In this document: piece after piece, positions 2 to 35,268 of the stretch
Numbering within the stretch: position 1 is the stretch's first letter
How the letters are laid out: each line of letters starts with the position of its first letter
Assembly (NCBI GenBank): GCA_038208115.1
Contig: JBBQZC010000007.1
Span: forward strand, 1 to 61,691
Length of the DNA stretch: 61,691 nt
Direction of reading: 5' to 3'
From: Candidatus Moraniibacteriota bacterium
GTDB taxonomy: Bacteria > Patescibacteriota > Minisyncoccia > Moranbacterales > GCA-2747515
Position numbers and translations under genes: made by a program
The notes under the pieces: generated by a model
What the model was told of the DNA's origin: nothing
Seen by the model: only the letters and a program-made list of their open reading frames with translations
The model's database searches: none

Positions 2-148
2 ATTGATTATCTTATTTGGTACAATACACGAAGAGTACACCACGCTTTCAAAAACAAACTTTCTCCGATACAATTCATATTATCAGAAGGATTTAATCTT
101 AATTTGCCTCAAGAGTGCAAAGTAGGGTGGACGCATACAAAAGATTGA
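2..148 (+). mobile_element. 3' end of an IS481-like (integrase-core) transposase, cut by the window edge; element right end at ...GCATACA (139)
   Basis: Manual translation from position 2 gives IDYLIWYNTRRVHHAFKNKLSPIQF...ECKVGWTHTKD*. The WYNxxRxH...SP motif is typical of the rve/IS481 C-terminus, and the terminal ACA fits IS481 TGT...ACA ends. Confidence 0.7.
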
Positions 149-173
149 CAAAAGTATAAAAATGGTGTATAAT
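145..173 (+). promoter_or_regulatory. consensus sigma70 promoter
   Basis: TTGACA (145-150), 17-bp spacer, TATAAT (168-173). Confidence 0.8.
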
Positions 174-25803: not shown

Positions 25804-25928
25804 AAAGAAGTACATCTTTTAAGCAGTTTTACAACAAATTGTTTAATGGCAAAACCGTCTTGATAGCGATTCTATCCTGACGGTTTTTTTTAAAAAATTT
25901 ATCACTTTACAAACCATTAGATTTAACT

Positions 25929-27047
25929 TTAAACTATTGATACGTATGTTTGATTCCCAATATTCTTTATATACTCATCGATTTCAAGTATTGTTAGTGT
26001 GCTAGAAACGGTATTTGCATCGCGTGACGATTCTTTGATGAGATGATTGATTTGGATACCGTCTGGATGTTTGTTGATAATGTTGAACAATTTTTTTTCA
26101 TCCTCATTTACAAACGTTGGTGTAATTTTTTGTGCTACGTTTTTGTGTTCTTTGTGGAATACAGCTAGAACATCATTACTTGAGAAAATTGGTTTTGCAA
26201 TGTCATTGCGAATAAGGTGGTTTGGTCCGTAAGCATGTGGGGCGAAAATAGAACCTGGAAGGGCAAATAATTTTTTCTTAAATTGAGATGCATATGCAGC
26301 AGTGATGAGTGTGCCTGACTTCTCTCCGGCCTCGATGATGATCGTTGCTTGTGTGAGTCCTGCCATGATGCGATTGCGTGCGGGAAATGTGCCACGTGTT
26401 GGTTTAGTTGATAGGGGATATTCTGATATGAGTGCACCCCCGTGATCAATGATCTGTTTTGCTATGTGTATATGCGAACGCGGAGCAATGGACATGTCGT
26501 CTATGCCACCAGCGAGAATAGCAATGGTGATGCCATTATTTGTAAGTGCCGCGCGATGGGCAGTAATGTCTGTTCCTAGTGCAAGTCCTGATACAATAAC
26601 AATACCTGCATGTGCAAGATCATGTACAAATACGGTGGTCGCACGAATACCATAATCGCTAATCTTGCGAGATCCAACAATTGCGACAGATGGCAAATTT
26701 AATACAGTGGCATCGCCACGCACATAGAGACAAAATGGTGGATTGGTAATGTCATGTAGTTGTTTTGGGAATAACGGATTATGATGCGTGATGATATTAA
26801 TTTTATTTTTTTGTAATTTATCCCATTCAATTTCTGGGTTAATTTTCTTTCTCTGCTCAATTATTTGTATTACAAGAGATTTAGATAACCCAGCTGTAAC
26901 AAGCATAGTGTGATCAGCAAACCATGCATCCTTAAAGCAGTTAAAATATTGATTAAGTACATGGAGTTTGTGTGAACCAACGCCAGTTAGATGATTGAAT
27001 GCATTTATATACATGAGGTCAGGTAATGAATGTGTGGATGTTGACAT
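25929..27047 (-). CDS. dprA: DNA-processing protein DprA
   Basis: VAIVGSR, IVSGLALGTD, ISEYP, FPARNRIMAGL, EAGEKSGTLITA, C-terminal winged helix. Confidence 0.96.
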   Translation of the reverse strand: MSTSTHSLPDLMYINAFNHLTGVGSHKLHVLNQYFNCFKDAWFADHTMLVTAGLSKSLVIQIIEQRKKINPEIEWDKLQKNKINIITHHNPLFPKQLHDITNPPFCLYVRGDATVLNLPSVAIVGSRKISDYGIRATTVFVHDLAHAGIVIVSGLALGTDITAHRAALTNNGITIAILAGGIDDMSIAPRSHIHIAKQIIDHGGALISEYPLSTKPTRGTFPARNRIMAGLTQATIIIEAGEKSGTLITAAYASQFKKKLFALPGSIFAPHAYGPNHLIRNDIAKPIFSSNDVLAVFHKEHKNVAQKITPTFVNEDEKKLFNIINKHPDGIQINHLIKESSRDANTVSSTLTILEIDEYIKNIGNQTYVSIV

Positions 27048-34074: not shown

Positions 34075-34433
34075 TGTTAGCATTGCAGCAAAGGAGGTTA
34101 CACTTTTCACAGAAGAATTAAGCTAGAAGGTCATCTTTTAGCTTAAAAACTATGAATATTTATGACTCACAATATATGTCACTGCAAGAAGAAAAACTTA
34201 AATTAATCATAGAAAAACAAACCACTGTGGTAGCTGCGGCTGAAGATTTCAATGTTACCAGACAAACAGTCCATAAAAAGATGTACGCTCCACTAAAAAT
34301 TATCAGCACAGGTTAAATTTATTTCTACATTATTACAATTACCAAAAAAACCGCGAATTAGGTATAAATGGGAAAACGCCCATGCAAAGGCTCCAGGAGT
34401 GTGCAAGTGTAAACTTGACGCTGCAATGCTACA
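34075..34433 (+). mobile_element. internally deleted IS481-like element (359 bp)
   Basis: Terminal IRs TGT(T)AGCATTGCAGC / GCTGCAATGCTACA. It holds a transposase N-terminal HTH (TVVAAAEDFNVTRQTVHK) and C-terminus (FLHYYNYQ..LGINGKTPMQRL) with the core missing. Confidence 0.8.
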
Positions 34434-34437
34434 AAAA

Positions 34438-34466
34438 TTGACAAAAACGATATTTCGTAGTAAAAT
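34438..34466 (+). promoter_or_regulatory. sigma70 promoter abutting the IS right end
   Basis: TTGACA, 17 bp, TAAAAT. Confidence 0.7.
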
Positions 34467-34611
34467 AGTTATTCTGTTCTTTGATATTTTGAAGTAACTG
34501 TTTGCCATAGCAGAAAGGATTATTCTCGATTGTGAGAAATGTATTTTCTGTTGTGGCAAAGTCGATGGTCGATTTTAGTCACGGCAATAACATTTATTGT
34601 GGAGGTTTGTC

Positions 34612-35268
34612 ATGGCAACAGCAGTAGTCACCGGCGAACAATATTACGAAGTTCATGGAAAAGTGCTCGAATTAATGAGGCAGTTGAGACAGAAGGGCGG
34701 CTATCCGCACGATATTAATAAACTGGATCAACATCTTCATGCAGCAACTGAAGGTCGCTTTCTAAATATTCCTGGGAGATTTTTGGCAGAATTCACATGT
34801 TCAAAATTGCCTGATGGCCCTGCAATTTGTGATACAGTCAAGATATTTAATCCAGAAGGATATTTATCTGACGCAACAAGAGGGTTGTTGCTTCAAATGG
34901 ATATTTTGCCTGAGGAAAAAGATGTATGTTTATGGAGTGTGACTGGTAAGGAGCTGGGTTTTAACAATGCTTCTCCGATGCATCGAGTTTATGAACGTGC
35001 TGAGCAGTTCGGTCTAGGGGTGGTTACGCCACAGATGATGGTTGGATATTTTATCAAGATCAAGAATGATAATATTCTCATCAAAAATCATTTCGGCGGC
35101 ATGAAGCCAATAATCGTAAAAGCAAATTATTATGATCCATTCTGTGTTTTTTGTATTATTAATAGGGCTGGCGTTATGGTATTAAGTCATCAAGAAGCTC
35201 ATAGCAACACCCTATTTAACCCAGAAGTTCGATGGATGTTTACATGTCCCCCAGGATGGGTGAAATAA
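34612..35268 (+). CDS. hypothetical protein (islet ORFan)
   Basis: GGAGG SD before the ATG at 34612; hairpin ACCCACTTATC/GATAAGTGGGT downstream. Confidence 0.7.
   Translation: MATAVVTGEQYYEVHGKVLELMRQLRQKGGYPHDINKLDQHLHAATEGRFLNIPGRFLAEFTCSKLPDGPAICDTVKIFNPEGYLSDATRGLLLQMDILPEEKDVCLWSVTGKELGFNNASPMHRVYERAEQFGLGVVTPQMMVGYFIKIKNDNILIKNHFGGMKPIIVKANYYDPFCVFCIINRAGVMVLSHQEAHSNTLFNPEVRWMFTCPPGWVK

Follow-up and report, generated by a model that had tools for sequence, protein, structure and literature searches.

The 61,691-nucleotide stretch analysed here, the whole of which we call the window, is contig JBBQZC010000007.1 of a Candidatus Moraniibacteriota bacterium (assembly GCA_038208115.1). It opens with the 3′ end of IS-A, an IS481-like insertion sequence (IS) of about 1.1 kb, followed at once by a promoter. 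We propose that IS-A very probably chooses such targets: judging from its junctions, its right end would be placed 5 bp upstream of a sigma70-type -35 hexamer, the transposase gene being oriented toward the promoter. Targeting of this kind is well supported at the level of sequence, the evidence being over 100 insertions, an empty site and junctions from the literature. In the IS-A lineage, the same features recur together: the 5-bp distance, a TTGnnn hexamer, a -10 hexamer 16-18 bp further on, one orientation and an element that has no stop codon of its own.

At the junction in the window (site 1), the last 139 bp of IS-A occupy positions 1-139 of the plus strand, the truncation at position 1 being the start of the contig and not biological. 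The 3′ end of the transposase open reading frame (ORF), open on its 5′ side, runs from 2 to 148 (+); it reads ...YNTRRVHHAFKNKLSPIQF...ECKVGWTHT, after which the flank encodes K, D and the stop, there being no stop codon inside the element. The right inverted repeat (IRR), GAGTGCAAAGTAGGGTGGACGCATACA at 113-139 (+), pairs with the left end TGTCTAAGTTCACATACATATTGCACTC and at the same time encodes the conserved C-terminus ECKVGWTHT of the transposase. Next comes AAAGA (140-144), a 5-bp target-site duplication that is found again to the left of IS-A on contig C9, where the flank reads ..GCAAAAAGA. The host -35 hexamer TTGACA lies at 145-150 (+), and its TGA at 146-148 is the transposase stop; a 17-bp spacer (151-167) separates it from the host -10 hexamer TATAAT at 168-173 (+). 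The host gene behind this promoter encodes a 311-aa membrane protein (244-1179, +). An earlier note, made from the letters of the window alone, had described an element ending at ACA 139, TTGACA 5 bp on in a 17-bp-spaced promoter, and a transposase frame that crosses the terminal repeat to stop at TGA 146-148; the letters agree with it base for base.

The identical 139-bp end is present at 10 places in this genome of 40 contigs, nearly all of them at contig ends, since assembly stopped at the repeat (overlaps of k = 141). The ten right flanks that follow the terminal ACA are unrelated in sequence, and all carry a -35/-10 pattern. Besides AAAGA TTGACA-17-TATAAT at site 1, they are ATAAG TTGACT-17-TATAAT, AATTC TTGAAA-17-TATACT, AACTC TTGCAT-17-TATAAT, ACTTA TTGCAA-17-TAATCT, ATTAC TTGAGT-17-TATGCT, AATAT TTGCAA-17-TATAAT and TATAC TTGCAA-17-TATACT, together with CTGG TTGTCA-18-TATAAT, where the gap is 4 bp and TTG begins at +5, and CAAGT TTTACA-15-TATGCT, where TTT stands at +6. 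Thus, the exact arrangement of TTG at +6, a 17-bp spacer and TAnnnT is found in 8/10 flanks, and TTG or TTT at +6 in 9/10. Among the intergenic TTGs of the same genome, TAnnnT follows at 17 bp in 5.4% and at 16-18 bp in 12.5%, and TTG with TAnnnT at 16-18 bp begins at 0.27% of intergenic positions. Measured against this background, the eight exact flanks are explained neither by chance nor by a bare preference for TTG. The earlier note had conceded that chance could not be excluded with two cases; chance adjacency is now ruled out by the ten flanks from this one genome.

That the promoter is host DNA follows from three observations. In a congeneric genome (G011), the same two genes flank TTGACAAAAATGTAATAATGGTGTATAAT, with no IS between them. 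The pair consists of an ATP-binding cassette (ABC) transporter gene ending ...GGVYKKLHELQH.. and the orthologue (58% identical) of the 311-aa protein, and both the -35 and the -10 hexamers of site 1 are kept there free of the IS; the occupied locus reads ...GCAAAAAGA, then the IS, then AAAGA TTGACAAAAGTATAAAAATGGTGTATAAT. In addition, the hexamers vary between copies, and the target duplication separates the tip of the IS from the hexamer. Comparison with empty sites had been set beforehand as a test, and the promoter without the IS in G011 is the answer to it; the outcome that would have spoken against targeting, TTGACA as a part of the element at every copy, is not what is seen, since TTGACA, TTGACT, TTGAAA, TTGCAT, TTGCAA and TTGAGT all occur. 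Among the assembled contigs of the source metagenome, no empty IS-A allele was seen.

The same placement recurs in relatives. A single-protein query of genome contigs gave 7 loci, and a query of metagenome contigs with an alignment of 37 homologues gave 80. Four relatives in related genomes fit the pattern: TTTAC TTGAAA-17-TAGGAT, GGGTA TTGACA-16-TATAAT, ATCAT TTGACA-17-TATCAT and TTTAT TTGACA-17-TATGAT. From the 80 metagenomic loci, 62 unique right flanks could be read, at 50-72% protein identity. TTG stands at +6 in 44/62, and at no other offset in more than three; TAnnnT begins at +28, +29 and +30 in 14, 35 and 5 flanks, respectively (54/62 in total), while positions +1 to +5 hold no information. 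A -10 hexamer at 16-18 bp accompanies 42/44 of the TTG sites, and 10/18 of the sites without TTG keep the -10 in register. Three of the latter (L102, L108 and L109) show no resemblance to a -35 box and have a TGn extended -10 box; such sites number only three and read TATATA..TGATAGAAT, GTGAAA..TGGTAGGAT and ATTTAA..TGATAAAAT. A further site without TTG pairs TACGGT with a perfect TATAAT. The left ends, read outward as a control, have TTG at +6 in 1/46 and TAnnnT in 5/46, against 36 and 39 in the right flanks of the same loci. Therefore, the target is asymmetric and there is no palindromic cleavage preference; a palindromic consensus CAA-N5-TTG was rejected on the same count of 1/46. The pattern extends beyond the candidate phyla radiation (CPR), to an actinobacterial metagenome-assembled genome (MAG) with AATAC TTTACA-17-TACAAT and a gammaproteobacterial MAG with CACTC TTGACA-17-TACCAT before an IMP-dehydrogenase-like gene. 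A degenerate copy of the site-1 lineage in a Moraniibacteriota MAG (L027, JAGYLL010000029.1) was also seen, with 61 bp and a terminator-like hairpin between it and TTGACA; either the 5-bp rule does not hold for this copy, or IS and promoter were later pushed apart by another insertion.

Since the transposase ORF runs into the flank, the target can be read from the tails of the proteins. Of 113 cluster representatives drawn from 2,550 homologues, 64 end exactly 2 residues past the element-encoded ..GWxYT, and in the longer tails Cys (TGY) occupies tail position 3 in 22/49. An NNT codon could account for tail residue 2 in 111/113, and a second peak of tail length is found at 10 residues. At the nucleotide level, the stop is a TGA at codon 3 in 28/62 metagenomic and 4/10 own sites, and a TAA at codon 11 in 7/62 and 3/10; this TAA is part of TATAAT, which a 17-bp spacer puts in the same reading frame as the TGA. 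Together, the promoter hexamers provide more than half of all stops. In the other IS-A copies of this genome, the frame ends at differing codons of the flank. The earlier note had suggested aligning right flanks across copies and had taken random flanks as grounds for dropping its idea that these elements target sigma70 promoters just upstream of the -35 box. The flank sequences do differ, and the -35/-10 pattern is common to them, with TTG at +6 in 44 of the 62 metagenomic insertions; flanks, empty site, metagenomic insertions and tails all lend that idea support.

We turn to the element itself. Its interior is a 1116-bp unitig with a depth of 255 in the source metagenome, compared with 17.7 for neighbouring unique DNA, from which about 14 copies in the genome can be calculated, and the 100% identity of the ends indicates recent activity. 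A left-end repeat family, TGTCTAAGTTCACATACATATTGCACTC..., is found at 7 contig ends; it was identified from repeat families at contig ends and from the pairing of duplications. A search of the genome for the exact inverse of the IRR as a left end found none, because the inverted repeats are imperfect: the left inverted repeat (IRL) is TGTCTAAGTTCAC.. and the IRR ..GGACGCATACA, with TGT...ACA tips as in the IS481 family. Five left ends match five right ends by 5-bp duplications (AAAGA, ATAAG, TATAC, CAAGT and AATAT), short target duplications being likewise a mark of that family. Contig C3 carries 581 bp of IS-A, which encode 193 residues of an rve-type Asp-Asp-Glu (DDE) core with IS481 as the best NCBIfam family. 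A full-length relative, 70% identical to IS-A, is a 361-aa protein with Pfam HTH_32/HTH_23 followed by rve, rve_3 and rve_2; D190, D248 and E283 are invariant in the alignment of 37 homologues. Hence, the element has the single transposase ORF with N-terminal helix-turn-helix (HTH) and rve-type DDE core that is expected of IS481 elements. NCBIfam model NF033577 (transpos_IS481) is the best family for all three lineages of this genome, over model positions 2-283 of 284 and with IS3 second, at scores below its cut-off of 224 bits: 162.6 bits for the site-1 lineage, 178.4 for the lineage of site 2 and contig C13, and 194.2 for the third, the latter two being described below. As these are divergent members, we use the label IS481-like.

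A motif TTG[C/G]AC (TTGCAC/TTGGAC) lies about 20 bp in from the tip of each inverted repeat, in the CPR elements as well as in ISKpn28, a relative from Enterobacteriaceae. Such -35-like motifs (TTGCAC or TTGCAA) were seen in the window at 113-139, at the left ends on contigs C9, C18, C23, C24, C33 and C34, and at locus L113 (281-310 and 1346-1375). In the right repeat, the motif doubles as codons for the conserved E-C-K.

The genes behind the promoters hit by IS-A include housekeeping ones, namely uvrA, aspS, one for an S1 protein and one for a tRNA. The sole intragenic copy among the ten lies on contig C16 (1-424, locus L169), within a radical-SAM/SPASM gene that it splits at a promoter-like TTGTCA-18-TATAAT. 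The 94-aa fragment behind this copy has no match in Pfam and is the C-terminus of the radical-SAM gene, as a 354-aa homologue in genome G045 indicates. As this copy disrupts a gene, harmlessness does not define target sites. On contig C8 (139-185), the uvrA start codons were seen to follow directly after the -10 box (TATACT ATGATGACTATG..), which suggests that the uvrA mRNA is leaderless or near-leaderless. At site 1, for whose 311-aa membrane protein (244-1179) Pfam has no match, the 5′ leader (210-246) contains an 11-bp hairpin, ATATCGCCTTC...GGGAGGCGATAT (-15 kcal/mol), which buries the Shine-Dalgarno sequence and extends to the start codon; both stem arms are kept in G011. This leader hairpin may be an element of translational control.

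Two further IS481-like lineages occur in this genome. The first is represented in the window by an internally deleted relic of about 360 bp (site 2; 34075-34433, +) with two good inverted repeats, the IRL being TGTTAGCATTGCAGC..TTACACTT and the reverse complement of the IRR TGTAGCATTGCAGCG..TTTACACTT. The relic retains a 54-aa N-terminal HTH ORF (34152-34316) and the last ~37 transposase codons (..LQCYKN*), the catalytic core being deleted. A gap of 4 bp, AAAA (34434-34437), leads to the host promoter (34438-34466, +), consisting of TTGACA (34438-34443), a 17-bp spacer and TAAAAT (34461-34466); TGA 34439-34441 closes the frame of the relic. The downstream ORF (34597-35268, +), with a likely start at ATG 34612, has no match in Pfam. 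The earlier note had seen the geometry of site 1 recur at 34433 with a different inverted repeat. Its ACA end, TTGACA and in-frame TGA stand; the gap is 4 bp, not 5.

The inverted repeats of site 2 share 77-78% identity with those of an intact element on contig C13 (about 25,920-27,000, locus L025) with a 340-aa transposase, which ends ..CAGTACA AAATT TTGATA-16-TATACT. Here, the 12-13-bp duplication AATTTTGATAAA includes the -35 hexamer, so that the box is duplicated rather than adjoined; the right-hand docking would therefore be the same, with the cut of the other strand about one helical turn further. The 4-bp gap at site 2 brings the TGA into frame for this lineage, whereas the 5-bp gap of the C13 copy does not. 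Site 2 is what remains of an old insertion of this second lineage, with its interior deleted, at the corresponding position of another promoter; a decayed long duplication is possible there (9/13 matches).

The third lineage has a transposase of ~307 aa with its own stop, an IRL GGTAATGTGCA.. and a 4-bp duplication. There are three copies here, with ends on contigs C10 (both ends), C20, C21, C1 and C27, and it is the left end that lies 8 bp upstream of a divergent TTGACA. In this class (loci L115 and L129-L149), TTG stands at +9 in 22/22 sites and a clear -10 is present in 14/22; over the 22 sites, TTGACA is nearly invariant (~9.7 bits). A repeat of ~140 bp, with inverted repeats ..ATAATGTCGGCAGC ... 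GCTGCCGACATTAT.. at its termini, is further present in at least six copies in this genome, at the right ends of contigs C12 and C20, at the left end of C32 and on C21 (20337-20475, 21884-22023 and 22940-23086). This repeat could be an element akin to miniature inverted-repeat transposable elements.

How might such placement come about? Integration would proceed by a 5-bp staggered cut with the right end toward the -35 hexamer. The host promoter would be left intact, so the downstream gene would keep its core promoter, its losses being confined to DNA upstream of about -41. The stop-less transposase ORF would be closed by the TGA of a -35 hexamer beginning TTGA (tail codon 3) or, failing this, by the TAA of TATAAT (tail codon 11) when the spacer is 17 bp. 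One might object that TTGACA, or the entire promoter, is carried by the element and faces outward, as in the hybrid promoters of IS1, IS2, IS30 and ISAba1. Outward -35 boxes at the tips are common among IS, and sites 1 and 2 share the hexamer and the bases that follow (TTGACAAAA). Such a box, however, lies in the terminal repeat and is the same in every copy, whereas in the ten copies of IS-A everything past ACA varies, hexamer included; with the duplication between tip and hexamer and the IS-free promoter in G011, the idea was rejected and is left with practically no credence. It might also be held that IS-A has a weak preference for TTG only and lands widely, and that purifying selection in a gene-dense 1.3-Mb genome keeps the insertions that spare genes. 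A crude ORF call puts the coding share of the genome at ~84%, and most surviving copies do lie before intact genes, several of them of essential type. Selection, however, can set neither a fixed 5-bp distance nor a single orientation. About 87% of intergenic TTGs have no -10 and should be neutral to land in, yet they are almost never used, and the one copy that lies within a gene did disrupt it, at a sequence resembling a promoter. The copies are recent, with ends 100% identical, and an ISKpn28 insertion that arose de novo in the laboratory, inside nlpD upstream of rpoS, already reads GGTGG TTGCTT (PMC13733257). Fixed distance, orientation, unused TTGs and the gene-disrupting copy led us to reject selection as the sole cause, and we regard it as highly improbable. 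Several points nevertheless weigh against targeting as proposed here: no promoter is found at six to eight of the 62 metagenomic sites, an E. coli site in yegH has TTTTAG and a poor -10, and one broken copy on an enterobacterial plasmid has no promoter. The promoters at the sites are predictions, based on sequence and on conservation in a single congener. Moreover, an exact 5-bp duplication is present in only 12/47 metagenomic copies, which we tentatively attribute to assemblers joining the flanks of different identical copies; this count is not enlisted as support for targeting.

What, then, recognises the promoter? RNAP/sigma and TTGACA itself were the two possible guides named in the earlier note. 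In the site-1 lineage, the -35 hexamer holds ~4.8 bits (T-T-G, then A or C) and the -10 is almost always present, so TTG alone is insufficient to explain the sites. Since the whole promoter and not the TTG triplet marks the site, the RNA polymerase holoenzyme bound to it is the most economical reader, and we consider it an even bet that the holoenzyme guides IS-A. The transpososome would dock beside sigma region 4 or the C-terminal domain of the alpha subunit (alpha-CTD), or on the DNA bend upstream of the -35; such docking would be asymmetric and would thereby fix the orientation of insertion. The cuts fall at about -41/-40 and -36/-35, which is where class II activators, the alpha-CTD and the bending of promoter DNA are located, and DDE enzymes favour bent targets. 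Set against polymerase docking are the facts that insertions keep a constant distance to the -35 but not to the -10, and that the third lineage conserves TTGACA far beyond the needs of RNA polymerase; the TTG[C/G]AC motif of the inverted repeats may also mean that a DNA-binding domain of the transposase reads -35-like DNA. These observations feed a different proposal, direct readout, in which the transposase or spare DNA-binding domains of the transpososome recognise -35-like DNA, and perhaps the -10, polymerase being unneeded; insertions would then persist at promoters since real -35 boxes match best. In its favour, the position is locked to TTG while the -10 floats over 16-18 bp, the motif recurs in both repeats of CPR elements and ISKpn28, TTG is found in 22/22 third-lineage sites with a clear -10 in only 14, and the C13-lineage duplication contains the -35, so that the transpososome must span the hexamer. 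The two sister lineages thus behave as though they read the hexamer itself. The site-1 lineage, however, conserves only T-T-G, yet 42/44 sites have a -10 against a background of 12.5%, and sites without a -35 but with a good or extended -10 are targeted in the same register; extended -10 promoters are used by RNA polymerase without a -35 box. The sigma70 holoenzyme reads just such a bipartite motif, with a 17±1 spacer, as no known transposase does. Direct readout is the main alternative, which we hold to be possible and the weaker of the two. Returning to guidance by the holoenzyme, the whole-promoter signature and the extended -10 sites may point, indirectly, to tethering of the kind known for Ty3, by contact between integrase and a transcription protein. 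A broader version, in which a widespread DDE clade from CPR to Enterobacteriaceae would be guided by the holoenzyme to about -41/-36 of essentially any sigma70-type promoter, seems to us slightly less than an even prospect. That promoter occupancy controls transposase output, for example by polymerase blocking read-through before the borrowed stop, is pure speculation.

If the proposal is true, there is a class of transposons that reads promoters, a universal bacterial signal, and this would explain both the spread of these IS across phyla and their persistence in tiny, gene-dense genomes without loss of genes. Each insertion would replace the DNA upstream of -41, with its UP elements and activator sites, and add read-through transcription into the gene. 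The rewiring of regulation would thus be systematic rather than random, and would extend to clinical plasmids of Klebsiella and E. coli that carry members of the ISKpn28 group. In addition, the insertion sites would amount to a promoter map, obtained from sequence, for uncultivated organisms, and the transposase could serve as a tool for promoter-directed integration.

Among known elements, the closest is ISKpn28, which is found on chromosomes and plasmids of Klebsiella and E. coli, is listed by ISfinder under IS481 and is annotated as "IS481-like element ISKpn28 family transposase", placing IS-A by homology in the IS481 family. Its transposase shares 38% identity, over 92% of the length and as far as the final residues, and its termini are nearly identical, TGTGTAAGTTCACAC.. 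/ ..GTGGTGGACCCATACA compared with TGTCTAAGTTCACAT.. / ..GGTGGACGCATACA in IS-A. A report on K. pneumoniae (PMC13733257, November 2026) describes 5-bp direct repeats and the absence of a canonical stop codon from the element, while stating that the insertion-site preference could not be determined. In its Table 3, the 5-bp repeat is followed by TTG at 5/9 loci, among them the de novo insertion in nlpD (PMC13733257), and the published table fits the rule proposed here, unremarked there. Of 5,426 complete E. coli genomes, 1,086 carry an ISKpn28-like element at 80-90% identity. Sites that we sampled include CGGAG TTCCAT-17-TATAAT on a Klebsiella plasmid and, in E. coli, a hok-type site TCTCC TTGCCT-17-TAACCT and an integrase site GCATT TTGATT. 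ISKpn28 differs from IS-A in its hosts, which are Enterobacteriaceae and not CPR, and in a promoter pattern that is looser at the few sites sampled.

With the Bordetella prototypes IS481 and IS1002, IS-A has in common the single-ORF HTH and rve DDE transposase and the TGT...ACA termini. These prototypes make 6-bp duplications at palindromic NCTAGN, and their own outward promoters influence their neighbours. IS-A, by contrast, has a 5-bp duplication and an asymmetric promoter target, and the -35 box lies outside the element. Target duplications in the IS481 family range from 2 to 15 bp (PMC10045372); for IS481 relatives, discrete lengths of ~4-6, ~15 and ~25 bp have been discussed, targets not (PMC10045372). 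The IS1202 group falls inside the IS481 phylogeny (PMC10045372), and an IS1202 subgroup is reported in a preprint to target XerCD recombination sites (10.1101/2022.12.17.520857). Two large surveys go no further than to note that members of the IS481 family often lie side by side with flanking genes, or are rich in predicted regulatory motifs (PMC13548323, PMC9208149). Full-text searches, in which subscription journals are mostly uncovered, turned up no account of IS481-type elements being directed to promoters, an absence that is not proof.

Other site-seeking bacterial elements insert at signals of a different kind: Tn7 at attTn7, IS1397 and IS110-type elements at repetitive extragenic palindromic (REP) sequences, and group II introns at terminators. 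Tn7, the IS1202 subgroup, IS1397/IS110-type elements and group II introns share with IS-A oriented insertion at a conserved, harmless signal. The signal of IS-A is unlike theirs in being the promoter itself, of which there are hundreds per genome in nearly all bacteria. In this respect, the nearest likeness is found in yeasts, where the integrases of Ty3, Ty1 and Tf1, which also have the rve fold, insert a short, constant distance ahead of transcription starts and spare the genes, guided by the transcription machinery or a promoter-bound factor. These are eukaryotic retroelements with known tethers, and their likeness to IS-A is functional only; by that analogy, a clade of transposases guided by the holoenzyme would be the bacterial counterpart of Ty3-style tethering.

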